From: Lytechinus pictus
Lineage: Eukaryota
DNA: 64,000 nucleotides
Assembly (NCBI RefSeq): GCF_037042905.1
Contig: NC_087245.1
Span: 18,664,001-18,728,000, forward strand
Reading direction: 5' to 3'
Positions 7,006 through 31,800 of the stretch are shown here, one piece after another. Below the pieces are notes generated by a model. It searched no databases. It saw nothing but the letters and a program-made list of their open reading frames with translations, and was not told the origin of the DNA. How positions within the stretch are numbered: position 1 is the first letter of the stretch; every line of letters begins with the position of its first letter. Position numbers and translations under genes: made by a program.

Positions 7006-7814
7006 TCACGACTGTTTTGGTTCTGAGCTTTTGCTCTTCATTGACCACATAGGATCCAGGCCACTGAAGGGATCATCAGGATCAGACTTGTCAATGCTGT
7101 CCTTGAGCCCTCCCTTCCCTTCCAAGAAATCAGCCTTGGACACCTTCTGTTTGGTCTGACCTTTCTCCTTCATGGAGAAGTTCTGAGGGGTAAGATCGGC
7201 CAAGATGGACGGAAGCGACGAACTTGGTCCTTCCATTGATCCGGATCCTTCCGAAATGTTGTCCCCTGTGTCCTGTTTGGTGCTGGATTCAACAACATCC
7301 GGTGCTACAAAGTTCTGCAGCGTTTGGGAGAAGACCTCAAGGTTATTGGCCTGAAGCTGGTCAAGGGATTTTGGCTTGTGGCCAGAATGGGCCGGAGAGG
7401 ACGTGAAGGAACTGATCCCTGATGGAGTACTGCTGCCCGTGTTACTGAGCAAGCCTTGGGTGGAGTTACTAGAAGGATCCTGGAGGCTGTCTCCTGTAAT
7501 CTGGTCTGGGATACCCTGGAATACTATGTCTCCATCCACCTTGTCCCTTGTCTCCTGCTGGTCATTACCATCTTGTTCATTGGACCTTGCAGGTGCTGCA
7601 TTCTCTACTTCAACACCCTCAGTTGGGACAACCTCTTCCTGTACTGTTTCAGCAGCGGGAGGCTGGTTGGGCTTGACACTAAACTTGGAGATGCGAGAGA
7701 TGAGGGTGTCTACATTGTCTGTTCCCATGATAACATCAAAAGAGTTGAGCCTCGAGGGTGCAAGTTTGGCGTCAAGGGGAGAGGCAGCTGCTACACTCTT
7801 TGTAGCTACTCCAC
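7006..7814 (-). CDS. PTPN23: PTPN23 exon 23 (C-terminal tail, stop TGA)
   Basis: Open frame to KVSKADFLE...DPDDPFSGLDPMWSMKSKSSEPKQS*. Confidence 0.92.
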
Positions 7815-10800
7815 CTAAACAGAATAAAAAGAGTGTTCTTCAAAAGGTCAGTAGAAAACACACAGTACCATCACTGAATTGAAGGTTTGAGCTATCAGTA
7901 ATTAACTAAACCTTTGCATATTGATTTTTTTTCTTCATAATCATTGATATCAGTAATTACTTTATAGGTATTTCCAAATTTTATCTTGGCAATTCTTGTG
8001 CAAATGGAAGAGGGTCCCCAGCCTGTTCTCAACTAAGCCCCTCTTCTTCCCTAAATCTGCCAATACCTTCAGCTCTAAATACCTGTTTTTTCAGGAGAAT
8101 GGTACAAATCCATTAACACCAAGTAATAAATACTGGAAAGGAATGCAGGGTATTTGGTGATGAAACATGAGAAAAAAATATAATTATTTCAATACTCACG
8201 TTTTGCCAGAGCATGATGAGCATAACACAGAATGGCATCATAGCTAAACTTGAGTTGTTCCTGTGAATGAAAATAATACAGATCAATGAGAATTATGTAC
8301 ATGTATGAACACATTGATTAGATAAAATGTGAATGCTTGCTTCTGCAGAAGTAAGCTATAAAGCTCAACGATCATCTTGTCCAATAAAAAGAACTTTATG
8401 AATTTAAGCTCATAAAGGAACAATGGGTCTTAATATATGATTTCTGTATTATAAAAAATCTCATTTTTATGGGAAAAAAATACTTCACAATAATCTTGAA
8501 TTCACAAATGCATCAATCCAAAAATTGACATTCTGTATTCAAACAAGTGATTCAAATGGGAATAATGGTTCTTTTTGGGTCATAACCAAAATATTTCTTC
8601 TGACAATGGCTTTTTACTAATTCCACTTTTCAAATCACCAATACCTGATAAAGCAATGCACACACTTCTACATTGGCAAGTGCACTGACCCTTAATCCAA
8701 AATTACTATTCTGTTATGTTAAAACCAATCATGTAGACTAAAAATACTGGACTTTTTCCCATTTCTCATTTTATTTTAGAAATAATGATAGAATATGGCC
8801 AGTACGTTACCTTCTCTGTCACCATCCATTTCCTCTGTAGTCGTAGCTTCTTGACTATCTGGGGTATATCAGTGATCCCGTGGCCTTCGTTGATTTCCCG
8901 AGCAGCAGTGTAGACTAAACAGAAGACACCAGTTCTGTCAATACCAGCACTGTTGTGACAAGCAACATGGCACATCAATTCTTAAAGTGAATATTAACAA
9001 TTCTAAAGTGTAATTCATAGAGCATCAAAACCGGTGTGTTGGCTCAGTTGGTAGAGCATCCGTCTCACAACCAGGAGGTCAGAGTTCAAACCTCGGCCGC
9101 GTCAGACCAAAAGACGTTAAAAGATGGGAGTTGCTGCTACCCTGTTTGGCATTCAACATTTAACGGTTAGAGCCTCGTTGATCTGGCGCTGCACAGTGGC
9201 TGCCAGGCCCACGATCAATTGAGCAAAATGAACTTTCTGAATATTTCTATTCTCAGATTTCTATTCTGAACAACAAAACATGGATTTTCATGGATTTCAT
9301 AGAAAAAGAGGGTACAGATATGCAATACAGGCAAGTCACATCTAAGTCACACCCGCATTGGCTCCACAGAAGTTTACAGAAGTTTGTTCAATTTAGAGAA
9401 GAACACATTTGTATAATATGGTTTGAAGAATTTTTGATGGGGGTGATTATTCTACCTACAGGGGTCAACTTAGGCATGTTTAACTGTGCATAAACAAACA
9501 GTGAAAAGGGAAGACAAACGGACATAAAATTAGGTCTTACAAACATGTGAGATGAGTAGAGGTCAATTAAAACAAAAGAAAACAAATTAATATGATAATC
9601 TCCTATATTATCCATCAATATGTAACAAAAGGAATTTTCTTCCTATGAGCAGAGATGCCTCTGGTCATGAAACATTTATTAGTCTTGTGATTCAGAACTT
9701 AATTCCATCCCTCCCTTATCAGCCAACAAACACTCCACTTTATGACAAATCACTGTCATTTGCAAACAAATAAGACCATTATTCAAAAATTCAATTAACT
9801 ACAAATAAAAACTTGCGTTTCAACTCTTTTCTCCACTCTCTTGTTTCTTTTGACCAAATAACCTTCATTCCCAATCCCATCAAGATTTCGCAGACATCCA
9901 AACATTTCTCTTTCCCTCTTCTTTCTATCCTATCCAACACATGTCATAATAATAAAAGTCCAATATCTCACTGTATAATACGACCAAACTATCCTAGACT
10001 ATAGTGTACTGTAAAAGTGGAAATTTTCGCGGATTTCGCGGCAAGATCGGCGAGCGCGAATTTAAAAACACGCAAATTTATGAGCATCTATATTAATGCA
10101 AGTTTTGAACCGCGGTTCATTTGCGTGTATCGTTTTGGCAAAGAGATTGCATAATTTGACCTATAGAGGGCGGCATTCAAGCAAGCAAGCTTGAGCTCCA
10201 AAATCATATGCATCACGAGAATTTGTTCCAAAGCAATGCGATAATTTTTTAATAGTCGCAAATCGGTATTTAAATTAGGATTTTGGTTGAAATATAGATT
10301 GCTTTTGCTGTTTGATTGGTGAGTGTTTAGATCTGTTTAGTTTTTAAGAAGACTTTGGGTCGATCGCCATGTTTCCTGATTGATCCCATGCACTTTGAAT
10401 AGCCGTAATCCCCGGTCCTTACCCGGTGCTCGGCCGTCCATACCAGGCCAGCAGCGCCTCCGTTTTTGCCTTCCCCGATGTCCGCCCAGCAAAGAAAAGT
10501 TGCGCTAAATGTCACAAAAGCTCATGATTGAATCAAAACAATGCTGAATTATGCCACTTTAGAGCTAGAGTTATGATCAGAAAATACAATTTCGTTGCTG
10601 AAATGTTAATTAAAACCATTCACAGATGGGCAAGATTCGCAAGAAGGAAGTGACTTTGTGATTATGGAGTGTGCAGCGCGAATTCAAGAACCCGCGAATA
10701 TGTTTTGAAGTCGTCAAGCGCGAAAAATTAATCCCGCGAAAATAACAGCGTTTACAGTATGTTGCTCACCTGCAATGAACCACAATGGGGATCTGTGTCT

Positions 10801-13800
10801 TGCGTTGTTGAGAATGGTAACTCTGGACTTCATCAATGAACTGCAGCAGTACTCCAGGGCTACTTGGAACTCCACTAGAAAATGACACAGAAGAATCACT
10901 TACAAGCACATACCTAAGACTAACTTACTGAATTTCAGAATCCTTTCACTTCTTACCCTCCCATTTCTGTGCAGACATAGGGATAAGGGAGTTACAATTA
11001 CAAGGGAAAAGACCCCCAGAGTGAAATTCATTCAAAAGGATGTTGTCAAAAGTCCTTCTGATTGTTAGTAAGGCAACTTTCAATATGATGCATCAACATA
11101 ATGAAACTAGAGTATTAAATCAAGATTAGTACCCCATTTATTTCTTAGATAGAACTTACACACCCCAAAAGAAATTGGAATTACTACAGATGGAGTCATG
11201 AGATCATGAGTTCCATTTGCATACAAAAAGAAAAGGTGGAGAGGAGACACCATCTTCGCAGTCATTGTAATGCAAAGATATATATATATTTTTACAAAAA
11301 TATTATGAACATTTTGCGCAATGAGATTTGAAACAACTTACAACTCAGGCCAGGCAGTGAACTGTAGGTGTGTGATGGTTCTCATCTGTCTAGTGGGTAG
11401 ATGGGTTAGATGGATAATCCTCTCTACATGGTAGTCTGTTGTTCGCTTTGATTGTAAGCTGATAGAGATGTCACCAAATTTCTGGGCAGGACCTTTATCC
11501 TCTGGCCAATAGCCGATGAAGCTTGTTGAACCCTGTGGTGAATAGAATAAATGCATTTTATAGTTTGGCATATTATGGTGAGCTTACAAACACGACAGTC
11601 CAGAAAGGTTGTTTGATATTTATGGTTTGACAAAGAATTATTTTGCTCTAATACTTATTTAAAAAATTACGCTCATTTCGTCATCATAATTGTCATCATC
11701 ACACCCATCATTCTCATTATCATCAGCATCCTCAACACTATCATCATCATCATCATCATCATCACTATCATCATCATTATATTTGCATTAAACCCCCTTT
11801 ATCAGTAAACAATTCATGAGCACAAATTTAAGTTAAATCTTCAGTCTTTTTTCCCTCAATATTCCTACAACTTAAACAAAAGCTACATGTAATTTCCCCT
11901 TTTCCTAATCACTCACCTTTCCTGTAGTTGGTTTTGAGAGCAGCATGACAATGAGTGAAGCCTGCTGCTCATACACCATCAACCAGAAATCACTCAGGGA
12001 TGGTTGAAGAGGGGCTTGGGTTGCTATGAAACAAGGACTGGTTGCAACAACATCTTTGACAAAACTAGCATTGATGTAGTCATCCCTGGTGCCTCGAAGA
12101 CACACCCTGTTATGGTCATCTGGTATCAACAGTATGAAATACCATTTACAATTTCATTCACAATAAACTTTTGAACAATCCATAAATAAACGTTACAAAA
12201 GTATGACAGTATACTACTTTATTTCATCAGCAGTAGGATTATCATCCTTGAAAACTAATTTGACGTGTACAATACTAAAATAGAAAACATTATCATGCTA
12301 AAAAACTAATTCTTTATTACATCATTTTGCTGCCAATAGCAAGAGGAAAGATATTTATTTTAAACAAGTGGAACGCCTCTGGCAGTCTCGCCTGCATTAC
12401 GCAATTTAATATAGCAGCAGTGCTAACTTTGAAAACTACTATAAAATAATCATTCACAAAAACATAATTCATATAATGACATAATACCACGTTCATTGAC
12501 CATAAATGACATTTGAACGGAGACTTAAGACTGTCAACTACACCCATGTCCACATTTCATTCACTCTATCCATAAACTTTCAAAGTTATGATGGCACTTC
12601 AACAATTACCCCAACATGGCCTAAGTTTATTGACCTTAACTGACCTTTGACTTGGTTTTGTGACCTGAAACTCACAGGGGATGCTCAGTGATGCTTGATT
12701 ACTCTTATATCCCAAGTTTTATGAACTAGATCCATAAACTTTCACAGTTAGGATGGTAATTCAACAAATACCCCCAACACGGCCAAAGTTCATTGACCTT
12801 TAATGACCTTTGACCATGGTCATGTGACCTGAAACTCGCACAGGATGTTCAGTGATACTTGATTACTCTTATGTCCAAGTTTTATGAACTAGATCCATAA
12901 ACTTTCAGAGCCAAGATTATGTTTACAGAAATGTTTTCATTATGACTATTAACAATAAACATCTCTTTCTTTCCTGTATTTTTTATAAGCTATTAAATTC
13001 TAGACAAGGCCGCAATATATCGTCAAGCAGGCCATGTTCTAAGAAGATCCAAGGCTATAAAAAACAAGAGTTTCTTACAAGGCATGATGTCTGGATGTCT
13101 GTTCTTTACAGAGTAACAACGAGCGATGGCAATGGAAAACTGACGTGTCTCTCGGTCCTGATAATCAGTCAGATCCTATTATGATAACAATAGCAGAGAT
13201 AATAAAACATTTAGGTGTGAGGAACGCACATGGGCGGAATTCCCAGGGGGACAGGGGGGACGCGTCCCCCCTACTCAAAATAGTAGGGGGGACAATACTT
13301 CATTCAAAATCGAAATAAAACATGTATTTTGGTCGAAATGACCTTACATTTGGGGTGATACCCTCTGTTTTTTGTTTTTTTTGCTTGTCAATTTTTCCAG
13401 CCCCTTGTCCCCCTACCTTTTGGGAGAGATTTCTGCCCCTGGGAATACACACACAGCAGCAACACCAATAAGGGAAACGATTAATGCAAATAAAACAAAT
13501 GACAATCTGTTAATAGTACTTCTGTCAGACACCTTTTCAGTATTTGGTCAGGAAATGACATATGTAAAAATAAGTATAGTAGGTTTCACAGAACACCATG
13601 TATCTTTCTTGGGCAAATGTTGGCCCTGAAAAGGACCATCAAAATAAAAACTCCATTTGCCCAAGAAAGATACATGGTGTTCCATGAAACCTCCTACACT
13701 ATTCTTCTTTGCCATGGAAACCTTCAGTTACATGTAAAAATTACTTTTGCGATGTTCATACAAAATTATTCATGTACAGAATGGGGATTGGTGAAAAGCA

Positions 13801-16800
13801 AAAAGATGATTTGGAGAAAACCTATTGGTTATATAATAAAAAAATCACCTGAATACAATGATGCTACAAAACTGAAATATTAAACACGATGAAGGACTGA
13901 TTTTGTACCCCACCTACTGTTCATATTTTAAGAAAAAAAATAAATGCCCAATATGCAGAGAATTGGTTTCTTTTTGGGTAATCTGAGAGGTTTCTATAAA
14001 ATAGTATACAGTTATGAAGATGGATAAAATAGTCAACTATAAATGTGTTTCTAACCTTCCACAATCTTTCAATGACAGTAGGTCCACTGAGCATCTTGCG
14101 ATTCAATCCCTCTACATATTTATCCAGTCTTTCCACCTCCTCCACAAACTTCTCCAGAGATTCCTTATCAGCATATGGATTCTTATCACCGGGCATCTTG
14201 GCTAACACTGGTTGCTGTGTTGTAGAGTCTGGGGTCTTTGTCACTCCTTGTGGTAGTGGTTGTCTGAGGTTGCTCACTGAAGATGGTGTAGAGGTGATGA
14301 CTGGAGGGCTTGAAAGAGCAGGCTGAAGCTTCAATTCTGCCAGTATATCCATGGTGGATGAAGGACCTGTAGTTCGACTTGCACTGGGGGTTGAAGTGGG
14401 CAGTGGTTGACTTTGTGGAGTGCTTTGTGGCTGCACTTCAATGCTGGCAAGAACAGAGACATTTGAATTTGGATCTGTGGCAGGTTGTGTAGCTTCTGAT
14501 TGCACCTCTGCGGTTGATGCAACACTTTGTGGTGCAAGCACATCCTTAAGAGGTTGATTTTGCCTGTCCGGGCTTGTTGATAGAAGATCAGTTGCAGGCT
14601 TTGCACCGGCTTTCATGGGCTGTAACACTGGCTGGGGTAGTCTTTGCTGTTCAAAGCTTTGTTGTTGGGTTATCTGCTGCACTGAACTCATTGGTTGCAA
14701 CAGTTGCTGCAACTGCTGAGGATTTTGCTGGAGTGGTGGTCTGATGTTGGTCTGAGACACAATATTAGAGTTGTGTGCTGGTGGTCTAGGTTGCTGCATT
14801 GGCTGCAGACTTTGTTGTTGTTGAGGAATTGGTTGCTGCTGATAATTTTTTTGCTGGCTCTGAAGTTGCTGAGGATACTGTGGCTGTTGTTGATTAGACA
14901 GATGTTGCTGCTGCTGTGGAAAATATTGCTGCTGGTTGGGATGGTGATGCTGCTGTGTAGGTGGTTGCTGCTGCTGTGTAGGTGGTTGCTGTTGGTGTGT
15001 TGGAGGATGTTGTTGATGTGGTGCAGGTTTTTGTTGCTGTTGCTGCGCAGGATACTGCTGCTGCTGTTGTTGTTGAGGATATTGCTGCTGCATTTGTGGA
15101 CGATGTTGGTTCTGTTGCGGTTGCTGCATTTTCATTTGTTGATTGAACTGCTGGTGATGAGGCTGGTGCGGCATTTGTTGATTCTGCTGATTCAAGGCAG
15201 GTCTAACAGGAACCTGGTGTGGTATGGAACTAGCTACCTGTTGTCCACTTACATTGTTTGCAATATGCGGCGTACCACCCTGTGGACCAGAAGGCACATG
15301 TTTGCTGGGAGAAGACTGATAAGGTGTGCCACCTGATGGTTGCTGATACCCTTGAGGCTGCTGTGCTGGTTGATTTCCAGGCTGTTGTCCTGGTTGGTTT
15401 AAATGTTGTCCTTGTTGGTTTTGAGGTTGTTGTCCTGGTTGGTTTATCTGTTGCTGTTGACCCTGATTATAGCCTTGGTGGTAGACTTGTTGGTGTGGCA
15501 CCTGAACATTTGCAGCGCTCTGCTGAGATATTGGAACTTGACTGGGATGTTGTTGGGGAACAAATCCTTGCTGAGGATGTTGGTTACTTGCTGAGAACTT
15601 CTGTTGATGAGTTGTTGGAACTTGATGTACAGGGTTTACTTGTGGTTCTTGTGGAACAATGCCTTGTTGTGGAACAATACCTTTTTGTGGTTGCTGCTGT
15701 TGTAGTGCTATTTGCTGCCCTTGTTGATGAGAAGCAGCAGATTGTGGATGATACTGCTGAGTAGGCTGGACGTTGTTCCCTGTTTGAGAATAGGTCTGTG
15801 GTGTGTTGAATTGCTGAGGCTGGGATGCCTGGGATTGGAATTTTGGTTGCTGAGGAAACTGCTGTTGATGAGGTCTAATCACTTGAGAGTTCCCTTGCTG
15901 TTGTGGAATTAGACCAGTTCCTGATGATGGTGGTATCATTTGAGTGTCTGGGACTACTGACCTTGCCCCAGAATTGGGTAGTTGCTGACTATAATGCTGC
16001 TGCTGTTGCTGCTGCAAATGTGCTCCTTGTTGACCATGTTGTAATGTTGGCTGATGCTGTGGCATACCAACCTGAGATGGCATTTGAATGTTACTGATTT
16101 TTTGGTTGTTGATCATAGATGCTCCTGGTTGAAGAGCTCTATTTTGGACAGGTTGTCCCCCCTGAGAAGGCGGGATATTTCCTGGTGTGATTTGTTGCTG
16201 TTGTTGGTTCGGTATCTGATTGGGGGCAGAATTTACAGGCATGTGGCTGGGAGTGGTGTTGGTTGCACTTGGCAAATGAGCTGAAGAGTAAGACGAAGGA
16301 GGGGTCCCCTGTGGTGGTACTCCCGGCTGTGTAGGAGCTGATGACATCCCCATACTTGCAGCCTTGGCTCTTGCATGCTGTTCGGAGCCATATGCAGGAG
16401 GCTGCACAGGAGGTTGAAAAGACTGAGGCACAACTGCTTGCTGTTGGGAATGGGAAGGAGCAGATGATGGAATTTGTTGTCCTGAACTCACAACCTGGTG
16501 TGCAGGAAAATGAGCTGGTTGGTGCGGACTCTGGGCTAGCTGAGGTACTTGCTGGACACCAGGGGGCATCATAACTTGGTTAGGTCCAACTTGCTGTTGG
16601 CTGTAATTCTGACTTTGCACAGGAAAATTTGGATGAACAGCACCGGGCTGATGAGCAACAGGCATCTGTGATTGCTGATTAGTTTGACCAGGTTGGACTT
16701 GCACACCTCCAGGACCTTGTTGGGGAACATGAATAGGACTTTGCCTTGAGCTACTTGAAAAACTATCCTCTCTGGTCATAGATGTTGCTGGGTGCTGTGG

Positions 16801-19800
16801 TACCCTACTTTGGTGAACAGGAGATGCATGAGGGCTCTGTGAGATGTTCTGAGATGGCATTCGAACCCCTTGAGGCAAATTCTGGGATGGTGGAGGAAAA
16901 CCTGACTGAGGATGTCCTGTGGGAACAGGTTGCCCAACATTTGATGGTGGCACTGCTGCCACTGGTCGTGCCCCCTGACCACCCGGACTGCCATACTGCT
17001 GTTGTACAGGTACCCGTGGCTGAGCCATGCTGACCTGGGGTGGTACAACTGCAACACTGGCTGGTAGTGGTTGAGCACCAGGTTTTCCAGCTGATGAAAC
17101 TCCAGGTACCATAGCTTGAGAGTAAGGTACCTGACTAGGTCCTTGCATGGACACTGCTGGTGAAGCAGAAGCAGGCATTCCTGGAAACACATGAGGCTGG
17201 CTCGGTGGAGGTTGTGATGCAGACGGTTTGGCTGTCCTTCCTGATTTGGGCTTCCAGTAATCTGAAAGTTTAGGTCCTTGTGGTGCAGAAGAAACAGGCG
17301 CTGGTTCTGTGGGGCCTAGAGGTCCAGCTATTACCAATCCATTTGGACCAATCTGTAAACCTTCCATACTTAGCCCTGGGTAACCAGCTACAGATGGGGT
17401 TGGTTTAGGGGCAGCTGGTCTTTGAGGTGCTGTAGGTAAAAAAGGGAAATAAGTATTGTTAAATTCTTCTTCATAAATTCTAAACTAAAGATTGGCATCA
17501 AAATATTGAAAAAGATCTTGTGCCATCAACATTGACATAAAATTCAAAATATCTTCCTTCACATCAAAACAATGATTTCTGTGTAAAATTGTGTAATTTT
17601 CAACATTCAGAGATGTAACCAGAAATCAATTCCAACTAAAAAAAACATATCTCACATTCCACTATATATGATTGTGCTTATATAAATGGAGTACTGTGAA
17701 CAATAATATCCTATGATAAACAGAAAATACATCTTGATGAAAAAAAATATGGTGTAATATTTGATTGAAAAAATTTGTTTGATTTGTTTAAATTTGAATT
17801 CTTAACAGATCAAACTCAATGGTCCAAATTTACAGTAACGATTAACTAGTATCAGTTTATTAAAGGCCTATGAGCAAAACACCCTGTTAAATTATTCAAT
17901 GATGTTTGTTGGTAATCTTTAATTTTCAAACTTCTGTTGTGAATACTAGACAGTAGTATATTTTCACTAAGGGACATAAAAACCATGCAGAGGTGAAAGA
18001 GAGCTACTTCCAAATGGAGTGTAAAAGCTTGTTAGACAGTCAAAACAGAATCTTTACATCGTAAAAGTGCTACGATTGACTGTGGCTTACACAGAACAGC
18101 TTGTGCAACCTGGATCTTCATTGAAAAAGACTTGGACAATGCCTGTTGCAGATTAGACTTCTAACTAAAACTAAATGTTACCTTCTCCATTTTGGGCACA
18201 AATCTATGTCTGCATTGAGATTGTGAGAACAGCTTTAATAGTATAACCATGTTGACATGATGTTGACATCTTTAAGGGGAGACTTACGATATTTCTTTTT
18301 TATCTTCTCCTGTCTCTCTGCATGGTTTGCTTTCACAACTCCTTTGGTCTTGTTGAGAAGTTTGGTCACAGTCCCTTCCAGTTTCTTATAGAAGCCAATG
18401 CCCTTGTTTGATTTCTCAATTAGATCATCGTATACAGTGTAAGAGCTGATGAGTTCTCCAATCTTCTCCTCACGCCTGGGGGTAGATAAAATTATCATGA
18501 ATTATATTATTACAATAGTATCACACTAGAGCCCTGTTGCATAAGAGTTACTATTATTGTCACATTCGTATCCTATTGTTCCTTTCCTGAAATGCAATAT
18601 TGCAATATTCATTGCTACCATTCGATGGCAAATTTCCTATAATAGCAACATGAATGCCAAAGGGCCCAGGGCTACAAACAGTTCCTACGCTATGACAGAA
18701 GTGATCCATTGCAAAGCTTGCAATGGTGACCAGTGCAGATGGTAAAATATCAGTATGGATTTGAATTTTAGTCTTATCGTAATCATCATCACCCATCATC
18801 ACATCATAAATAGTAAGAATTCTTGTTTTGTATTCCAGTGGCTCTATGTACTTTTTCTGGCCATGTAAATCCTACATACAACATTATCCCTTAAAGCATT
18901 TGTTCTCACTTGCATTTTTTTTCCTACCCATTGCTCTTTGTATATTTGTTTGTTGGCCTTATCAACCTTCATGCTCACATGGAGATGACACTGCTTTTAT
19001 GATATTTCCTTTAAAATCACAAATCTCCCACTGGACAAGAGTGAAGGGATCATCTCTTACTTTGAAGCAATACCAGTTACCATCTTGCGTCTTTCAGCAT
19101 AGGCAGCATTGGCTTCAGTCATTGCCTTGAGGATGTTGTCTTGGGCAGATAGATTCTGTTCAAGGTAGGTGATCAGGGTCTCGTGTTTCTTCAATTCATT
19201 CTGGAAAAACTCCTACAAGAGCATGCAAAGGAAATTAGAAACTTTGGTCTTTTGAAGAATTAATACAGCTTTCAAGGTCACATAATCATAATAATCTGTT
19301 TTTCTACTACTCAAAATATCACGGCTTAGTATCTAAGCACTTTACAAATATATTATAAACCTAGTCCTACATTTTCGCTTTCCCAGACAAGATGTATGCA
19401 CGTTATCCACTCCTCCAAAACTTTTCAGGAGCTGGATTCCAAGCTCAAATTTCTAAGTATAATAAACTGGCTTTCGCATCATACTGGTTACCCAATTAAC
19501 ACATAGGTGGATAGTGGATGAGTGTAGGTTAATGTCTCGCAGATTAATTCGTGCAGAGGTGGACTCATAACCCTATGATTACAAGGCACGAGTCAGAAAC
19601 ACTACAGAACATAAAGATAAGAAAGGCTGTGAGTTAAGAATACCTGCATGCTTCCTTTGGTCCTTGTTACAATGCCTCCTGTTACATCATCATCTCGTAT
19701 GTTATCTCTAAGCTGCTGTTCTAAGGTCTGCCTCTGAGTCTTCATCTCGTCTACCTTAGCGACAAGTTTCTGCATCTTTTTCTCTGCCTCATCATCCTCC

Positions 19801-22800
19801 TCATCTATCAAAAATAGCAATATGAAGTACACTGATCAAACATTGTCCTATGCAACCTTCAAACGTGTGATACCAACAGATCAATGTCTTTCTGATATGC
19901 ATAGATGAGTTGAACTTGATCAAAAGGTTCTTAAATTATCTTATGGTGGAAAAAATGGGAGAAAAACATGCTAATTGTCTCAATCACAATGCCTCTGGCA
20001 CAAACCTTTAGTTAGCATGCATGTAAATGATGATTTTTTTTCCCATTTGAATAGGAATTGGGTAGGACTCTCCTGCAATATTTTCTATCGTGCTTGTCTT
20101 CATGTTAAACTCAACTTTTATCAGTGTATATTCACACATTTAACTTTTTTTTCTTTTAAATATATTTTAGTTTTAATTTGTTTCTTTGGTTTTTTTTTCA
20201 ATACTTTTTTTTTATGTAAGATCGATGTTTTACTTATACATTGAATCTTAATTGTATATACATGTAATGTGTTTTTATTATACACGGACGTTTTGAAGAA
20301 CAGCCTTTGGCTGATGTACGTGTACCTTGTCAAAATAAAATAAATGAAATGAAATTACAGTGATGCACAATAATTAATTATCCTAGGATACCCTCTTGAC
20401 GCCACTGAATGCATCATTATTGCTAAGTTCCAATACCATCCATCCTATTATCAAATGTTCCTCTGAATTTTTTTTTTCTGTATAATCCCTTGACATTACC
20501 ACTTAACTGAATCATTTGTGTCATAGCGAAAACAAGGGAACAACTGTCCTGGGATATAATACACTTAATATAGCCAGTGTGTTTCTAGTGCTTTCCTACC
20601 CTACATGGGAAGGTTAGGTTGATCACTGTGTTCTTTATCACAAAATATGATTTTCCTTGTATATTTTGATGAATATATACTGTCCTTTGTTCTTGTAGTA
20701 TCAGTAAAGCATTCAAAGTCACACTGCATGAGAAATACTATGTGAAGGCCTGGGCTATTGCATAGCTAGAGTGCTTACTTTATATTTAATTTTAAATAAT
20801 AGTTTTCATGAAGGAAAGAGGATATTACAATAATTATACATGTATAGAGGATATAATAACATGAACCATTGCTAGTAACAGGGTCCTCTAGCCTCCCCCC
20901 CCCCCCAATCCAGATTCCCTTAACCAGCATTTTGATGAGCAAGACTTACTTCTTGCTTCCTTAGCAGACGGAAGGGTTGCCTGGAGGGTCTCTACAGGAG
21001 AAGCCAGGAGCTTGATGTTCTCCATGTGGGTTTGCATAGCCTTGTGGAGCTCCGCATTGGACTGGCTAGCTGTGGCATGGAGCTCCCTACATTTTGTCAG
21101 ATCTTTCTTCATTTCTCCCAAAGACTTGGCACTCTTTGTCCCAAACTCCTTCTGTTAAAAGAGCAAGGTGTTTTGAAGGTATTGTGGTAATGAAATTAAA
21201 AAAAAAAATGTTTTGAAAGCATATTATTTGTTTGCATGTTTTAAGTAATTTATAATGCCAAATTCTATGTAAATCATATTGTAATGTCTAAACATTACAT
21301 CTTCTTTATCTAATATGTGTATATCATATAATAGCATTTTGACCCTATAACATAAAGATATATACTGTAGACAATATTTAGAATCTATAGTAACTGTTGA
21401 ACTTATTTTGTCATATGTTGATTTACGATCAATTATTTAATTGATTGTATTTTTTATGTTGCACAGCTCTGATACATGACATCTGTACAAAATGATAAGA
21501 AAATATTTGTACATATGAAAACAATTACTTGTAAAACAATTATTCGAGTATTTTAAAATACGAAAAGGACAGACTCAATCTGGAGATTACAACATGTTCC
21601 TCGTAATATTGAATATCTACTTCCTTTTCTTTCAAGTAATGTACTTAACCAATGCAAGGTCTATATCCTGGAATGCGATGCCATTATAATAATGAATACC
21701 GTATGTTAGAACTAAAAATCTATGTGTTGATATAAGCCAAGATATCTAAACAAGTTAGAATTAAAAGATAATCTGAATACAAAGAACCGTTATAAGTGAG
21801 CATGGCATCACATTACAAACAGGAAAAAATCTTCATAAAGTGGCAGTTTAAAAATAAGAAACAAAACACTCCCTCATAGGCTCACTGACAAAATGATCAA
21901 AATCACTTGAAGTTTTTTTTTAAAGGCTTAAAAGAAAAAGTTATGAAATCTCCAACCAAGAGCTTCAACTGTATTGAAAATGATACAAATTCAGAAAAAT
22001 GGGGTTCATTACAATCAGGCATTTCCTGAATGTATCTATTTACCTGAAACTCTGCCTCTTGTTTTTCTTCCTCTTCAAGGAGTTGTTCAATTTCTTTCAA
22101 TGACGAATCTACATCCATGACCACACCTGACAGCTCTGTGAAGAAAAAAAAAATCATAGACAATTGTAAGGCATTCTGTACCACTGTAAAATTCATTTGA
22201 AACTAGTAAAAGTAAACTCCTTGTATTGTTTGAATGAATGACTGGTTTGTTTTTATTAATAGTTGATCAGTATTGTTGGATTCAAAGGTACAATCTTCCC
22301 TCCCTCTTTTTCTTCTGAAAACTCATTTGGGATGGGCATGTGGAAAGTTTCAAAACCACTTCCCCAACCACCTCATAAAGAAACGGGAGTCCTGCAACCA
22401 AAAGTTTTCAATCTATTGGAAAATAGCAGCGGCCTAACAACATTAATGTTGCATGGGGCTTCAGTTAAAAAAAAGACCTGTTAATAATCAGAATTGTCTT
22501 TACACAATGGTGCTGAATGGCCCTGGTAAGAATTTTATAAAAAGTCTTGACATGAATTTCACTAAAAACTGTGATAAGCTATCAAAATTCTTGTCTCCAA
22601 ATGGTTTTCAGTAAAAACATGCCTCATGAAATCCCTCGGTTCCCATCTAATAGTCAGAAATAGATAAAAAATAATTTTTTTGATATTTTACATATGCATT
22701 ATTCCAATTAAATAATGAGTACCTTGCATGGAGGTGACTAGCGTCTTAATTGGCTCAGTCTTGACACTGAGGGCAGCACACACCTCCAGTAGGACCTGTG

Positions 22801-25800
22801 GAAGTACTTCCGGGTCACTCCCTGGCAGCTTCAGTTGTTCTAGCTGGACTGCAGACAAATATTGACTGGGAAAAAATGACACAAACATAAGCCAGTTGCG
22901 ATAAACAGCCATAAAATTTACTTTTGGTAACATACAGAAAATATTAATTTTTTTAGCTTCAAACTGAAAGTAGATATCATGGTCTCAAGAATACAGGCCC
23001 ATGAGTTTAACTTCTCAAAAGTGAAGATATGAATAATCAATCCAAAGTGGCGTATCGTAAAGCTGTTCATAAGTTGTGTGTGACTTTACACATAACTGAT
23101 GACCTGTTCTACCTACCATGTGACATTTGTGGATAAACAAGCATATGAATGCAAAGTATATTATTTGTCAAAATATGATTGGTGTTGTCTGAAATGCACT
23201 CCAATTCTGATATAACAGGAAAAAAAATAAGGGTATCTTATTTAGCACAAAAACAGGTCACCAAGTGTGCATGATTTATGAACAGCTTCAAGAAATTTCA
23301 TTATTACAGACATTTCTTCTCAAGTGGCAATTTATCTACCTGTGTCACATAGTACAACACTGCTGCCTGTGAAATGGGGAAGGCTGAAACAGGTCAGTAT
23401 TTATCAAAAATATTTATGCAATTGTTCAAATTGCACACTCATGCAGCATTACATCGCCCATATATACAATTCCTCAATCAACACATTATGAAAGAAAGTG
23501 ATATCTATCTAAAACTCATAGGACAAATCGTCAGTGGTCATCCGAACCGTCGTATCACACATACGACGGTGCAAACCCATTTCAGAGAAAATCGACTTCA
23601 AAGTTTACTAAAATTTTCACACTTAGTTCTCCAGCCTTACAACATATTTATTGCTAGAAATATACATGGTTAGAAAGACCAAGACAATTGCTTGACAATG
23701 GTATCCTTATTTTTACACAAAACCAAGGATCAGAGAAAATATCGCAAAAGAGCTGCATGCTTGTAATTTCGGTTTGAGCGTTCCCTCGTACAAAAACACA
23801 ATATGGAATACAACAACCCTGACCGTGATTTCTATGCACGCGGTCAGTCAAAACGTTGTATTGCTTTTCACGTGCATAGTCAATGCAGTGCAGATGGCCA
23901 ATACAACAGTTTGACTGACCGCGAGCATTGAAATCGCGGTCGGTCAAAACGTAGTATCGCTCTGCTACTGTACACGTTTCCAATGGGATTTGCAATTTTT
24001 AAAAAAATTTATACAGCATCGCCGTGAAAATCCTCTCATAACTAAGAAACTAAAAACAAATTGCTGCCTAGAAATTTAGTTATGAATAGAATAGGACTTG
24101 TATTTCATTTTCTGCAAAAATGTTAAAATCAATTTTTTGACCAAAATTGACTGATATGACGCTTCGGATGAATGCCGACGAAATGCCCAAATCCCCAAAT
24201 GCACTCACTCTAATCTCTTATTCTTATCTTCAATTTCATCCACCACTCTCCTTAGCAGTTTTGCCTTCTCCTCACTGTATAGGGACGATGCCTCATGAGC
24301 TTCCATGGGAACAAGCTTCCTGAAGATATCCGGTCCTGCTACTGCTTCATCATACGGTTGGAATGTTAGAGCTTTAACCAATGATGCACCTATTTCATTA
24401 CAAAAATAATTAACATCCAAATCATTAACCACTTTAAGTTATTTGTCGCTAATTTGATCAACTGTTAATCTTCAAACTGGCAGCATTCATTTTCTTCACT
24501 AGAATTTCTTTCACAGGAAGCTTCTTACATTTCATCTATACATTCAGACTCGGAAGGAAAACACAATCATGTATTTATTGTCGCCGAGACAACAGGATTT
24601 TATTTCAAATTTGTGAAAAATCATTCATTTTATTATTATGACCCAAAAATCATCAATTGATGTCCAGCTTTCTGAATCTCTGCTGTCTATCTCAATATTG
24701 AACCTGTAATGTTAACATAATGACTATCCCGCTGGATACAGTGTTATGTTTTGTTTACTCTCCTGAACATATCATTTTTTATTAAGATACAAAGTTGTCA
24801 CCAATCTCAGGCAGGCTCAACAAGGGAAGAATACTTCTGTGGTACACAAAATCATTGTTTTTCACTTTCCTGAACATTACATATTTTTAGATATGTTTTA
24901 GCTTCGGCAACATTACATGACCAACTGTAGTGGTTATATGATATGAAAAAAAATTTGATGGCACTCAAGATCAAATTACCTTTGATTTCATTCAGGTTCT
25001 CACTGCCATGGTAAACCAATTCAATGTTTTTTTATTCTCCTGAACCCTTCATTTTCTTTTTATATAAAAGACTTTGTCTCTGGTAACATTATATTAACAG
25101 CCTTGTTGAGTATACTCAAGATCATATTACCTTGGATTTCAGGAAGGCTCTCAAAAGGAGGCACACATATTCTCAACATTGATGGGTAGAATCAAGATCA
25201 AATTACCTTTGATTTCAGGAAGGCTCTCAAAAGTAGGCACACTGTCATGATATACAAATTCATTGTCTTTCGTGGCAGACTGGAACTTTCCAATCACAAC
25301 ATCCTTGGCAAAGTTGAGGGCCTCCGTAATGCTTTCTGGTTGACCCTGATGAACAAAAACATTATGGTTAGTGATATTGTTTTGCATGAACCCTTGACAT
25401 GCAAAGAAAAGTGAGGTCGGTGTGTGTTAAAAGGATATTCATGTGGTAAGAAAGCTGAAAACAATAATTTCAAGCTTTCAGGTTCTCATAAGCAACCAGG
25501 GAGTCTAAGCATGTATGTCCTCTTTGATTTGGTACCCTGCTCACAGGATAAAAAGGCCACTGCTCACTAAGAAAATCCATTCCCACTCTTCCCTCTATTA
25601 TCCATCTTTGTAGTATTAAAGTAGAAGTATATCTTGGCCCGAATTCACAAAGGTGGTTTTGAAAACCCACTGTTGAGTCCATGGTCTATGCAGATTTCCT
25701 GTATACATTATGCTTATTTTACCGCATATATTAAAAAATTCCAATGCTGATGAGCGCTTTTGTCACAGTGCGCCAAATTGACGCCTGTTGCCATGGTTAT

Positions 25801-28800
25801 CCACTGTTCTAAATTAATGAGTCCTCTCTTCAAACAGTGGACTCATGAATAAAATAGCTTTCTAACCATGGTAACAGGTGTCAATTTGGTGCACTGTGAC
25901 AAAAGCTGCGCATCAGCAGTGGACATTTTTTATACACGTGCCTGATACGCGCTAAATCAAGCATTATTTATACAGAAAATCTGCATAAACCATAGATTCA
26001 CCTTTGTGAATGCGGGCCCTTAAGTTTTTAATTTTTATTTCCCATAAACAAGGATGACTGGATTGACCTTACACTCACAGTAGTCACCCTTTGCAATCCA
26101 TCCTTTTCCTTTCCCCAACTCAAAGAAATCTCCATGTCCATTCCAACCCTCCTCCTCTCCTCCTTCACTTGCTTTTCCCATGTCTTCACAGGTTGTCCCC
26201 TCCTTGGCTAAATCATTTATATTAATGAGTAGATTTTACTCTTCTTAACAATTTCTTTGCACGTGGCTGTAACATGTTAATCAGAATACATCCCATCCTT
26301 AGTCTCTCCCTTCTTCTCTTTTCCCACTACTCCGGATGAAAATTTAAATCTCAAAATAGAGTTACCTTGCTCATCTTGACAGCTTCATTGTGTTTGGTTT
26401 GTGCGTATGTCAGGTATGCAACCCTCTCCCCATACTTCTGCTGTTCTTCAGCCTGGTTACTCATGAACATCTAATAACAAACCAAATATGATCAGGGTTA
26501 CACATATAATCAGCGTAACCCAGCCATTCAATGTTAAGTTCAATAATTTGCTGGGAACAAAAATTTGTGTGAATCAGGTGCTCTAAATCCTTTTAATTTT
26601 GAAATTAGTACTTATTCATTACTCTCTATATGGTATCACTCTCTCATGAAATAGTATAGAGTGAATGAAATTTAATTTAAAAAAATTAAAAAAAATTCCA
26701 CATTCACTCATTCATAAAAAAAAATTATAATAGTGGGTAAATAATAAATATTGTGCAATGTTCTCTTACACAGTCAGAGCGCCACGCGTATGCTAATGAG
26801 CACGATCGCTGAAATTTATTCAGAATCCCATCCGCCCGAAAATCATCTAGCGGGACTCTCGTAGATCGCGAGATATCACGAGAGTCATGCAGGTCTCGTT
26901 CTAATGACGTCATACTCTTCACTGGAAAAGCCAAGATGGAAGAATGCAACCGTAAGTAAATCTTGAAATCTTTAGCTTTATTTTGATATGAAATATGTGG
27001 TAATCCAGAAAAAAATTGAACCTGAAATAATGCTTTAGATCTAGGCAATATTTTAGCCGGATCGGAGATCAAATTTTTCATTAGAATGTTGTTTTTTACG
27101 TCCTGACCCTCCTCAGAATTTTTGGCTTTCGTGAAGCCTCCGATGTTGTAGAATATATTTCAGTGATGAACATGTGTAAATATCTCTGGGACGCAAAATC
27201 TCCTTCGTACTCGTATTTTACGATGAAACTACCTCAAATTTTCCATTTTGTCAACTGCACTGACGCTGATTCTTCTTTTGTACTTGTTTATTTTATTGAG
27301 TGATGACGTCAGCCATGGTCTCGCGCGGAGTAACCAACTGGTGGGTCAGTCCCATTACCATTAGTGTATTTTTGAGTCTTGTTTAAAAAGCTTGGTGCCC
27401 AATTCTCTCACATTGATTGTGTGAGGGCCAAATCATTGCCATGCGAACTTGAAATAAAGATTAGATCTAGTTTGAAATTATTTTGTAATTATTCCATGAG
27501 GTTGCAATCTAATTTTGTGCCTTATATTCTGATGCATTTCATCCAAATCAGACTATTATTTGAGACTGAGATAGAGCTCGAGAGCTGTGACACTAGTGTC
27601 AGTGACATGACACTGTCAACAGTTGTCTAAAAAAAAGGGAATTGACAGATTGAGATTGACTGACTTCTTGACTAGCCATGAGGCTCCTTGAGAGTAAATA
27701 TCATTCATTAACGTGTGCTTACCCTCCTTGGAGCCAGGGATTGCATCCCATACATTTGCGTGTACCGCGAAAAAAAACCCAGAAATTTTACGCTCTCGAG
27801 ATTTCTACTTTCCATATAAATTATAAGAGAGGTAGATCTAGTCCTAAATCATGTGAATGGGATATACAACTTCATCTCTGACATTTTTACATTTAAACAA
27901 GAATTCATTAAAAAGACAGAAAACTTTCAACGATGTTCATGTCACCATCATGTTTTTTTTTTTTTTTTTGCCAAGGCTACAAAACGCCTATTGAGGAAAT
28001 GAAGTTGTATCCCATTTACATGATTTAGGTATAGATCTTTTAGAAGGAAAGTAGAAATCTTGGGGAGAGTATGCATTTTACTCTCTGGGTCAGGAGCCTC
28101 CTGGCTACAGGTATTCTCTCTAGTTGTCGGTACTAATAGATCTCTATTGTAATTGATTATTGAATTAAAGTTATTAAGTAAATTGAAAATGAATTATGGA
28201 AACCTCAATAATAAACCTTGGTTAACAAAGGTGTCATTATAGATTTTTTTTAGAATTCAATTTAATCGTAGAATCTGTTAGATCTAAGCTTGATCTACTT
28301 TCTTTGAAAATTTAAATTCAAGACTCGGGCAATATACTAATCAAGAAGTTAACGTCCATGGGAACTCATTCATTTACTCATATTTTGTGGACTTTGAATT
28401 TTGATGAGACAAAAAGACATTTTAGCCCAAGATTTATTCAAGAAAGTTTGCATTTTTCAGGTGACAATCTGACATAGACTCAGATTTGAATTTTATTGCA
28501 TTTTTAAAAACATGTATCATTACATGATTAATTGTGCAGATGGGTGAGGCCTGAGGGGCCCTGATATGGTGGGGGGGGGGGGGCTTTCATTATCATAACT
28601 GCACTTTTTGCTATAAATTTTATTACAAACAGCTAAAACTTACCATCCAATTATGATTTTTTGCATGATCCCAGGCTATGTTCTGCTCAGTCCTCCCCCT
28701 TCCCACTCCAAAAAAAAAAAAAAAGAAACATTCTGCAGCCTTTGGGTATCCACACAGACAATGTCATTGTACAGATATTTTTAAGAAGTGCCATACTGAT

Positions 28801-31800
28801 ACAGCAACGCTTTGATAATTGAATTGTCACACTGCTGATTTTATTTTCTGGGGGAGCAGCAAAAATATTTTTTGATGGAGATGTGTCCCTCAAACCCTGA
28901 AATGGGAGTTCAAGAGGGAAACATACATGAACATGTATTTGTTTTTAATATAGTTAGGAAATATGAGCAATATTTTGATAAACTAAAATATGAATCTATG
29001 CATTTTATTTATTGTAAATTACTGAGCCTGCAAATTCTTTTTGCTTTGGGCAAAAATATTACTTGGATGGGCGCTTCTATTGCTATTTCAATAGATTTGT
29101 TTGCTATTTTTTCCACCGTGTCCTTCTTCATTAAGTGCTGACAAATTTTTATATGTGAACATTGTAATTTTGCTCTGAGTAAATAAATGATAGGAAGTTA
29201 AATGTTATGTTATTACATATTGCAATTATTTTCTTTGTAATGACATTTAACTCTCTGTCCTTTTGTTTTATTGCTTTCCTAGTTTGGAATTTATTTTGTT
29301 GTAAAAGCAATCTTTTCTTTTTTTTTCTTTACAGATCACCTTCACATCTGGCTGGATGCCAAGTTCTTTTGATAGGAGACTCAATTGTGCGACACGCTGT
29401 TTTTAATGGACCCTTTTCTTCTGAAACTTTGTGCTTTCCAGGGGCTAATGTTACATCGTTAAGATCATCATTCGTCAAATCTTTCAGAATTACTTCGACT
29501 TTTCTACAAAGGCTGTTTTCATCCATATAGGAACAAACAATTTAGAACATAGTGTTTGGGAAAAGGATTCCAAAGCATTTCATAATTTGTATATTAGTGT
29601 TAGAGAGCAATTTCGGTGTGCAAAGATTATTAACTGTTTGGGATAAAGTACAGATTCCCATATACTATTATCCAGACATTGAATTATATGGCTTTGTTGT
29701 ATCCAGGGATGATGGGGAAGTACCGTACATGTAGCATGCCAGTGGGACACAGATGAAAGTATTGAAAAGATTAAATCAAATGTTTTATATCTCACAAGGG
29801 GTTGTTCTTGTGCCAAGAGCAAATGTCATAACCATTTATGTAAATGTAGAAAAGAGGGTAGATTTTGTGGGCCAGGTTGCCGCTGTAGACAGTGCCAAAA
29901 TCTTACTGCTGTAGAGAAACTGGCAAGTGATAGCGACTCCAGTGAAGAAGATTCTGATATTGATCATTTTGATTATGATTCTGATTTTGATGAAGTTCCT
30001 TGTGATAAAACAAATATCGAAGGTACCATTGAAATCGACATTGATGGTGATTTATCTCTGTTTGAAGATTTGCAGGAAGACTGTTCAGATTATGAGTAGG
30101 CATTCTCTGTGTCATGTTCTTGTAGCCCTTTAAAATCATTCATCAGTCATTTAATCAGTCTATTATATGCCAGTATTCATTGGCTGCTGTGAGGGTGAAG
30201 TTTGTTACATTGAATCAATTCATGATAGCTATTACTTTTATATTATGTACATGTTTTTTTTAATGGTTATAATTTTTGTTTAAAGAACATTTATAAGAAG
30301 GCATGACAGGCAATGTGGAAATGTTGGTGAGCATTTACACATGTTTTTTATGCATGTGATACCTTTTTATTTGTATATCATTAAGTGTCTGCAACATTAC
30401 ACTATTTCCACATTATGCATAACAGAAGAAGTTGAACTATTTTTTTTTTCACAAGTATGCACATTTTTCATATATTTAACGTACCTTGTTATGTTTATTC
30501 TTGCTTTTTACTGCAATACATATGAGTCAGTGTATGTATACGTTTCTTGCCAGTTCCATTGAGGTCTTGCAGGTCAATCATTTTGGTAGCTGAAATAATA
30601 GTTGTCGTAGTTGTATGAAACAAATGTGAAGTTTCTTACGACAATTGTGAGGCTTAAGCAGAATACATGATGGTTACATGTATTTTGTTAGATTGGCTAA
30701 TTATTTCATTAGCAATATATAGAGGTGCAGTACCGTACATGTATTTCCTCTTGAACTTTGACGCAGCTTTTTCAATATGTGTGTGATTTACAATATCCTA
30801 TAAAACAGTTGTGTATATTATTATTATTATTTTGCCGTTGTTGCTTTGCTTTTGCTACTTATGATTATGATTATGTAAATGTGTAACTTTTTTTGCTTAC
30901 ATACATGTATTGAACCTTTTGTACAAGTTGTCATGATGGTGAGCATTGAACTACCTTTGTTCCTACTTTTACATGTACATTATATATATTTTCATGATCA
31001 CCTCTTTATAAATTGTTTTTCCTTGTCATTTAGATAGTGCATTGTGGCAGTTTCTTGCAGGTCAATCATTTTGGCAACTCAGATAATAGTTTTTGTAGTT
31101 ACATGTAGGCCTATATGAAACAAATGATAAGTTTCTTACAGCAATTGTGAGGCTTAAGCTAAATACATGATGGTTACATGTATTTTGTTAGATTGGCTAA
31201 TTATTTCATTAGCAATATATAGAGGTGCAGTACATGTATTTCCTCTTGAACTTTGACGCAGCTTTTTCAATATGTTTGTGATTTACAATATCCTATAAAA
31301 CAGTTGTGTCTATTATTTTACCCTGCTGTTGCTGTTCCTACTTATGATTATGTAAATGTGTAAATTTTTTGGTTATGTAAATGTGTAAATTTTTTGTTTA
31401 TATGTTGAAGCACTTGTACAAGTTGTCATGATGGTGAGCATTGAACTACCCTTGTTCCTACTTTTACATGTACATTATGTATATTTTCATGATCACCTTT
31501 TTATAAATTGTTTTTTCCTTGCCATTTAGAGAGTGCATAGTGGCAGTTTTAACATCTCATACACATGTTAACAATGGGGACATTATTACAGTTGGTGATA
31601 CGTATATTGACCCCAGTAATTCCATATATTGTAATATGTATTACCTAGATATACATGTATGTAAACGTATGGCTGAATTATTTCTTTTATGAGGCAGTTT
31701 TGATGGCACTGACTTCTGTATACAAAGATTATTTCACTTGTTTCCTGTCATGACTACCAAAGTAATTTCACTGATGACGGGCTTTCCTAAACGATACATT

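Follow-up and report, generated by a model that had tools for sequence, protein, structure and literature searches.

The phosphatase (PTP) domain of HD-PTP (PTPN23) in the sea urchin Lytechinus pictus is probably a pseudophosphatase or an enzyme with trace activity, since its active site departs from that of classical PTPs at five places. The KNRY Tyr is replaced by His (KNRH), the E-loop Glu by Thr, the WPD general acid by Glu (WPE), the P-loop Gly before the Arg by Asp and the first Q-loop Gln by Thr; the P-loop Cys, Ala and Arg and the second Q-loop Gln (PTP1B Gln266) are kept. HD-PTP serves as an ESCRT adaptor, sorting endosomal cargo by means of its Bro1 and V domains, and it is known as a tumour suppressor and neurodevelopmental disease gene. 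The vertebrate protein is classed as a pseudophosphatase; its activity, and hence whether HD-PTP is a dead enzyme, is disputed. The case for a dead enzyme rests largely on a single Ser that has been described as conserved in orthologues. The initial annotation had proposed that the urchin domain is either catalytically competent or disabled by a different route, and the latter fits both the five departures and the wear at other sites in nearly every orthologue lineage.

The analysed window, a stretch of 64,000 nucleotides, contains the gene on the minus strand with 23 coding exons (Table 1). The encoded protein carries the Bro1 and V domains at its N-terminus (Pfam matches in the exon ORFs and in the protein P0377), followed by a long proline-rich region and one classical PTP domain. 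In the exon map, 2358 of the 2363 residues of P0377 were placed as exact blocks in the window, and both ATG and stop are present. The PTP domain clusters with named PTPN23 proteins with a support of 100 in a quick IQ-TREE analysis (a 72-row clade versus four other PTPs), and the same grouping was obtained with FastTree. By analogy with the family, the urchin protein may also bind ESCRT on endosomes. Gene and spliced protein are already annotated in RefSeq: no difference was found between the PTP domain and that of the L. pictus PTPN23-like protein XP_054753045.2, which spans about residues 1800-2100 of that protein (300/300 residues identical), and 299/300 residues match L. variegatus proteins.

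Table 1. Features of the L. pictus HD-PTP gene (positions in the window).
Feature	Position	Strand	Evidence
PTPN23 / HD-PTP gene, ATG to stop, 23 coding exons	7006..46291	-	exact-block exon map
Exons 1-9, Bro1 domain	24211..46291	-	Pfam BRO1 matches, 7 exon ORFs in order; exon map
Exons 10-15, V (coiled-coil) domain	18289..22864	-	Pfam ALIX_LYPXL_bnd matches; exon map
Exon 16, 1124 codons, Pro/Gln-rich and helices preceding PTP domain	14056..17427	-	exon map
Exon 17, pTyr-recognition loop, KNRH 13106-13095 (His for Tyr)	13079..13175	-	spliced reading
Exon 18, PTP motifs 2-5	11917..12119	-	Pfam Y_phosphatase; RNA contig
Exon 18, Thr codon at expected E-loop Glu place	11928-11926	-	alignment
Exon 19, ending in WPE (11352-11344)	11342..11532	-	RNA contig and reading
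Exon 20, ending in VHC and two Ser-codon bases; catalytic Cys 10774-10772	10770..10874	-	105-letter RNA contig gap
Phase-2 GT-AG intron, 1820 bases, cutting P-loop	8950..10769	-	sequence
Exon 21: Ala 8948-8946, Asp 8939-8937, Arg 8936-8934, Q-loop Thr 8819-8817	8811..8949	-	RNA contig and reading
Exon 22: second Q-loop Gln retained (8257-8255), last PTP helix	8200..8260	-	exon map
Exon 23, coding part, C-terminal tail	7006..7814	-	exon map, RNA contig

The P-loop motif VHCSAGIDRTG is assembled from exons 20 and 21, with VHC at 10780-10772, AGIDRT at 8948-8931 and the intron inside the Ser codon (AG|T); exons 21 and 22 together give RKWMVTEKEQL (RKWMVTEK 8834-8811, EQL 8260-8252). These readings, as well as KNRH in exon 17 and WPE at the end of exon 19, bear out the initial annotation, whose exon numbers (17 and 19-22) are consistent with the 23-exon map. 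Its remark that ORF scans miss the split motif is also true; the spliced protein, however, was already in RefSeq. The 10770/8949 junction, for which RNA confirmation had been called for, agrees with a spliced RNA contig (X1 record 1) by length and coverage, not by a read across the junction: letters 2413-2602 lie on 11342-11531 and letters 2708-2847 on 8810-8949, and the 105 letters between these blocks match in length exon 10874-10770 (105 bases), which itself has coverage from this contig, with a depth of 10.1 at both 10817 and 10826. Between 9100 and 8880 there are nine AG acceptors, three of which leave the frame open to 8811. Alternative exon 21 acceptors (8934 and the 8914 region) were rejected, as they lie inside the exon and would remove the motif; only 8949 keeps it whole. 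It is hardly conceivable that a misplaced splice site or a variant private to this assembly accounts for the motif: none of the RNA junction rows listed shows this joint directly, but the contig arithmetic fits the splice, no competing acceptor retains the motif, and RefSeq has it in the proteins of four species (L. pictus, L. variegatus, S. purpuratus and Diadema). When the RNA runs were placed, high-copy repeats were seen in the introns of the stretch.

Loss of the E-loop Glu was absent from the departures listed initially; no Glu is found within one residue on either side of the Thr, and the site coincides with the lowest confidence of the structural model (residues 127-132). The Q-loop Thr aligns, as had been proposed, with the first Q-loop Gln of solved PTPs (PTP1B Gln262). 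It is not fixed among urchins, and the idea of a conserved special residue was rejected, since S. purpuratus has Ser. The fold is that of a classical PTP, as judged from a model of the near-identical P0123 domain (pLDDT 89; TM about 0.83 versus PTP1B; TM 0.8 versus PTP1B and PTPRS). Every fold or sequence match listed is a classical PTP, and the 60 sequence matches and 50 fold ranks shown include no solved HD-PTP PTP domain. The lost parts would have served in pTyr stacking (Tyr), holding of the Arg (E-loop Glu), general acid catalysis, the P-loop (Gly) and water positioning (Gln), and, going by these residues and their spread, the five losses would sum to no or trace turnover. The P-loop Arg is locked in place by the E-loop Glu (PMC8031367). 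In SHP2, the equivalent changes made singly lower kcat about 80-fold for the Tyr and 15-fold for the Gln (PMC4007598), WPE reduces the activity of PTP1B about 1000-fold (PMC2638020), and Gly-to-Ala at the place of the P-loop Gly is net-negative (PMC13714419). In PTPRU, single reversions did not restore activity (PMC7320164). A caveat for the dead-enzyme reading is that these mutational precedents come from other enzymes.

Wear of the active site is widespread among HD-PTP orthologues. The survey comprised 133 complete domains, 6 of 139 with a gap at a scored site being left out; domains of fewer than 150 residues were omitted from the alignment, and two receptor domains above the cut-off were excluded from both sets, as were the high-scoring P0318 and P0271, which fail the Cys column rule. 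The catalytic Cys is present in 133/133 domains, and Tyr, Asp, Ala and Gln occur all together in none (0/133). The 72 non-redundant orthologue domains meet at most four of six consensus features (68 meet one to three), while 82 of 121 first domains of receptor PTPs meet all six; in consensus score, HD-PTP orthologues resemble the second and not the first domains of receptor PTPs. Each animal lineage wears the site in its own way: the Arg is gone in tunicates and the WPD acid in arthropods and molluscan-type rows, and amphioxus carries Asp for Ala. The E-loop Glu is missing in all nine echinoderms and present in 58/64 other non-redundant orthologues; among other PTPs it is present in 113/120 first domains and 54/55 single domains. 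Vertebrates have Ser for Ala in all 60 complete rows, and Ser at this position is mainly a vertebrate state. The P-loop Ala alone was rejected as a predictor of an active enzyme.

It had been reasoned that the urchin motif would be unremarkable if the same residues were common across invertebrates. This holds in part: in invertebrates, departure from the human motif as well as from the consensus is the rule, and CSAGIDR is common to three urchin genera, but P-loop Ala (7/133) and Asp (4/133) are uncommon overall. The acorn worm Ptychodera flava has CSAGVDR (XP_070570355.1) and the sea cucumber Holothuria leucospilota the canonical CSAGVGR (KAJ8019804.1). Since crinoids, starfish, brittle star and sea cucumber have Gly, two gains of Asp would be the shortest history; the order of the gains rests on the accepted animal tree, as the quick IQ-TREE did not settle the deep forks. 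All four Asp-bearing orthologues also carry Ala and WPE, and the acorn worm departs only at WPE and Asp, with Tyr, E-loop Glu, Ala and both Gln kept. Among the other classical PTPs compared, this position is Gly in 116/121 first domains, and Asp occurs in 7/124 later, 0/121 first and 0/56 single domains, so that outside HD-PTP it was found only in second (D2-type) domains. With exon 21 alone, a very short query, none of 25 candidate homologues was significant, and a coral protein in the protein atlas fell into generic PTP clusters only.

Vertebrate HD-PTP shares with the urchin protein the Bro1-V-proline-rich-PTP order, KNRH, WPE, Cys and Arg (about 42-50% domain identity). It has Ser for Ala, mostly keeps the Gly, the E-loop Glu and the first Q-loop Gln, and has lost the second Gln, whereas the urchin has Ala, Asp for Gly and the second Gln and lacks the E-loop Glu and the first Gln. 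The D2 domains of receptor PTPs (PTPRA, PTPRS, LAR) resemble the urchin domain in their Ala-containing P-loop, WPE and missing KNRY Tyr, and have negligible activity (PMC2638020); the urchin domain, however, is a single cytoplasmic domain behind Bro1 and V and belongs to a separate clade.

That the domain works as a genuine, if slow, protein tyrosine phosphatase on a few endosomal substrates appears unlikely. Here Cys, Ala and Arg would perform the first step, the WPE Glu would be a poor acid, the second Q-loop Gln would aid hydrolysis, and tethering via Bro1 and V would offset the low rate. The classical fold and the invariant Cys favour such an activity, as does the human Ser-to-Ala revertant (Ser1394Ala), which is measurably active despite His and WPE (kcat 0.1-0.2 per s on DiFMUP, abolished by Cys-to-Ser; PMC2661844). 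Human wild-type HD-PTP was reported to dephosphorylate FYN pTyr420; Ser-to-Ala, however, left the activity on FYN unchanged (PMC5710140), and the competence initially considered gains little from a revertant that is slow on one substrate and unaltered on the other. PTEN Gly129Glu, a change at the same P-loop place as the urchin Asp, retains peptide activity and loses lipid activity (PMC4322731). The fixed Cys, the human activities and the second Q-loop Gln, kept in urchins and lost in vertebrates, also count against a dead enzyme. Against slow turnover stand three departures lacking a vertebrate counterpart (E-loop Glu, P-loop Gly, first Q-loop Gln) and the many orthologues that have lost the WPD acid or the Arg and still hold the domain, which argues that catalysis is not what the family conserves. 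It is less probable still that urchins and acorn worms independently gained the P-loop Asp as a substitute for the WPD acid, making the ESCRT adaptor a phosphatase of endosomal phosphoinositides on a classical PTP fold. A conserved catalytic Asp occupies the same P-loop position six in myotubularins (HCSDGWDR) and in MptpB-like enzymes (HCXXGKDR), yet the MptpB group requires a P-loop Lys for lipid binding (PMC3091653), which at position five is Ile in the urchin; the urchin protein also differs from both groups in domain make-up, and the sequence and fold of its domain are those of a classical PTP. In PTPRQ the lipid preference is set by WPE, and PTEN carries Thr in place of the first Q-loop Gln (PMC4322731). 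PTPRQ likewise combines the classical fold with WPE, P-loop Ala and no KNRY Tyr, but it is a receptor and retains the Gly, E-loop Glu and both Q-loop Gln. The constant company of Asp with Ala and WPE, the otherwise intact acorn worm site and the putative double gain would suit a lipid phosphatase; the loss of lipid activity in the PTEN mutant, the D2-type association of the Asp within the classical fold and the Ser of S. purpuratus speak against it, and human wild type and Ala revertant were inactive on four phosphoinositides (PMC2661844; see also PMC2638020). If true, this reading would place a myotubularin-type mechanism within the classical PTP fold and provide a natural example of a pseudoenzyme that became active again in a new way.

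That the enzyme is dead or very weak thus remains the preferred reading, and the urchin domain may be retained as a binding or scaffold module. It is under selection for something, which also counts against a dead enzyme, because CSAGIDR is constant across three genera with up to 15% divergence between their domains and the differences listed from RNA runs in the PTP exons (at least nine) are all synonymous. The fixed Cys would perhaps allow the domain to hold phosphate or sense oxidation. In the fly, the Cys-to-Ser protein rescues as well as the wild type does, according to work cited in PMC2661844. The Ala would be an ancestral state never lost by urchins, and the vertebrate Ser one of many lineage-specific drifts of an already crippled site; as Ser is mainly vertebrate and lineages wore the site differently, a non-catalytic family role is favoured. 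Taken by itself, the urchin motif is a modest variation that the clade shares, in a gene already annotated; together, the sea cucumber (canonical P-loop), the acorn worm (WPE and Asp only) and the urchin (five departures) form a natural allelic series.

The exons of the PTP region lie on the minus strand of the HD-PTP gene, all have AG and GT ends and, when joined, form a single open frame; Pfam Y_phosphatase matches fall on four of them in profile order (14-76, 86-144, 146-176 and 178-221). Their codons read KNRH, WPE, VHC-S-AGIDRT, with the P-loop Ser codon divided by a 1820-base intron, and RKWMVTEK-EQL, as the initial annotation had claimed. Its Gln-to-Thr change in the Q-loop is likewise borne out by the alignment to solved PTPs, in which this Thr occupies the first Q-loop Gln position and the Gln of EQL the second. 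RNA evidence comes from four sequencing runs mapped to the window. The X1 contig (4098 letters), guessed to be RNA and intron-free, lies on five exons in order. It supports the proposed 10770/8949 junction by length and coverage: it covers the exon ending at 10770 and has 105 letters, the length of that exon, between the pieces ending at 11342 and starting at 8949. In two stranded raw RNA runs, coverage of exon bins is low and comes from one strand, and several intron bins have none; all 9 of the listed PTP-exon differences in the RNA data are synonymous. The observation is real and was correctly read.

Upstream exons match BRO1 and the V domain (Pfam; 298 of 321 listed ORFs scanned). The spliced PTP domain is identical to that of XP_054753045.2, a Lytechinus pictus PTPN23-like protein (300/300), and nearly so to that of L. 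variegatus (299/300); 2358 of the 2363 residues of XP_054753045.2 are placed on 23 exons from 46291 to 7009. The gene is the annotated sea urchin HD-PTP, and its protein is already in RefSeq. Its Pro/Gln-rich exon is much longer than the corresponding vertebrate region, with 93% identity between two Lytechinus species and 45% to Diadema.

Features of the HD-PTP locus in window coordinates
Feature	Position	Strand	Remarks
PTP-region exons	13175-13079, 12119-11917, 11532-11342, 10874-10770, 8949-8811, 8260-8200, 7814 onward	minus	AG/GT ends
Pro/Gln-rich exon	14056-17427	minus	one exon, 1124 codons
LINE-like retrotransposon	58076-61585	minus	1170-codon open frame, upstream of HD-PTP gene
High-copy intronic repeats	12334-13074, 8876-9369, 13075-13815		
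Cys-rich open frame	29713-30096	plus	within intron 6
Short frames	43140-44264	minus	
Three-base microsatellite	11705-11785		imperfect, in intron 18

Three orthologue sets were drawn on: a Bro1-exon search unselective for the PTP motif (120 of 608 matches listed), a crinoid PTP domain search (120 of 153 listed) and HMMER over cluster representatives (best 150). The sample, 72 rows at 90% redundancy, is vertebrate-heavy, with few cnidarians and sponges. Vertebrates carry CSSGVGR in 60 of 62 rows, the other two being incomplete. CSAGIDR and WPE are found in Lytechinus, Strongylocentrotus and Diadema, whose Q-loop residue is Thr, Ser and Thr, respectively; the P-loop reads CSAGVGR in sea cucumber, CNSGVGR in starfish, CNCGVGR in the brittle star, CNGGVGR in crinoids and CSAGVDR in the acorn worm. 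Amphioxus (P0005, P0006) keeps WPD and has CSDGVGR, with Asp at the Ala place as in IA-2, tunicates have His at the catalytic Arg (P0156, P0157, P0159), and arthropod and other protostome rows have no acid at the WPD place. Among 133 complete orthologue domains, Cys is present in 133, Ala in 7, Asp preceding Arg in 4 and the first Q-loop Gln in 95; none keeps Tyr, Asp, Ala and Gln jointly. Echinoderms have the first Q-loop Gln in 0/9 and the second in 9/9. Urchin PTP domains are 84-100% identical to each other, comparable to the V domain, and selection on this domain, as judged from sequence, is real. What stays constant in the family is the fold and the Cys; the acid, the residue that partners the Arg and the Gln are not conserved. 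The CSAGIDR site represents a clade-wide variant of an already known pseudophosphatase. Conservation of the Ser among orthologues, as stated in the accessible text of PMC2661844, fails in this sample beyond vertebrates, starfish and some insects.

Classical PTPs carry a Glu six residues past the motif-5 Met, which pairs with and locks the P-loop Arg (PMC8031367 and PMC12728608, accessible text). This E-loop Glu is kept in 113/120 first domains, 54/55 single domains and 58/64 non-echinoderm orthologues, and in 0/9 echinoderms; the window has Thr there, a loss overlooked in the initial annotation. The AlphaFold model of P0123, a domain 298/300 identical to the window's, has a classical PTP fold (pLDDT 89), in which the E-loop is the sole very-low-confidence stretch and confidence is reduced at the pTyr loop; the low confidence hints at disorder and is no proof of it.

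P0128 from Ptychodera flava (XP_070570355.1, PTP domain 1799-2029) keeps KNRY, the E-loop Glu, Ala, Arg and both Q-loop Gln and departs only by WPE and the Asp preceding Arg; from its sequence, it would be the top candidate in the set for an active bilaterian HD-PTP. The Holothuria leucospilota cluster (P0378, P0125) has a fully canonical CSAGVGR. Its other motifs are KNRH and WPE, it lacks the E-loop Glu, and its first Q-loop Gln is replaced by Ala; it amounts to a naturally occurring counterpart of the human Ser-to-Ala revertant. The coral protein P0318 (Oculina patagonica, KAL9958457.1; 906 residues) lacks Bro1, and its PTP domain (128-418) has all catalytic motifs intact. A FastTree analysis with receptor PTPs as the only outgroup places this domain as the sister group of the bilaterian PTPN23 domains as a whole; the protein may reflect the ancestral, active condition, or else be a paralogue or a split gene model.

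The precedents that follow are taken from the accessible parts of the cited papers. The wild-type human domain is inactive, with zero lipid activity; Ser1394Ala reaches a kcat on DiFMUP of 0.1-0.2 per s versus 17-28 for PTP1B, Glu-to-Asp by itself has no effect, and a fly Cys-to-Ser protein is cited as achieving rescue (Gingras 2009, PMC2661844). HD-PTP was also inert toward peptides, DiFMUP and lipids, and WPE lowers PTP1B activity by three orders (Barr 2009, PMC2638020). Wild-type HD-PTP dephosphorylates FYN, on which Ser1394Ala is not above wild type and only a triple reversion brings improvement (Zhang 2017, PMC5710140). In SHP2, kcat is 80-fold lower in Tyr279Cys and 15-fold lower in Gln506Pro (PMC4007598), and Gly464Ala is net-negative (PMC13714419); residue 464 is the place before Arg because the P-loop is numbered 458-464 with Cys459 (PMC4007598). 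PTPRU, with several departures, is not revived by any single reversion (PMC7320164). Therefore, Ala lifts one brake, and the urchin domain adds three and regains one Gln. We consider it probable that the urchin domain is a pseudophosphatase or trace enzyme, which would act as a binding module for the ESCRT adaptor; the sequence, splicing and distribution are observed, and the inactivity and scaffold role are inferred. A slow pTyr phosphatase is rather unlikely.

It is tempting to speculate that the P-loop Asp acts as catalytic acid in a lipid phosphatase, as it sits at position six, the catalytic Asp place of myotubularins and MptpB-like enzymes (PMC3091653, accessible text), the lipid preference of PTPRQ comes from WPE and, in PTEN, Thr occupies the Gln place (PMC4322731, likewise), and P0128, the acorn worm protein and the cleanest test case, combines the Asp with an unaltered Tyr, Glu and Ala and both Gln. 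However, the urchin P-loop has no Lys, PTEN Gly129Glu loses lipid activity (PMC4322731), the human Ala revertant has none (PMC2661844), and Asp preceding Arg follows a D2 pattern, all 7 cases among 301 other classical PTP domains being later (D2-type) domains. Such a lipid phosphatase is thus highly improbable.

The urchin site is of modest interest, and an inexpensive, decisive assay is possible. A literature search, with most subscription papers outside its reach, turned up no publication dealing with the active site of echinoderm HD-PTP. A 2006 sea urchin PTP survey and a 2017 phosphatome survey may already mention it.

Among the other elements of the window, the LINE-like frame encodes reverse transcriptase and RNase H domains. 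The short frames, presumably fragments of a Harbinger-type transposase, gave zero Pfam matches at E 0.01, and the Cys-rich frame is followed by an acidic tail and resembles a CRC/tesmin-like transposon piece. The intronic repeats show very high RNA depth originating at other loci, and the first of them contains internal rearrangements of 150-390 bases.
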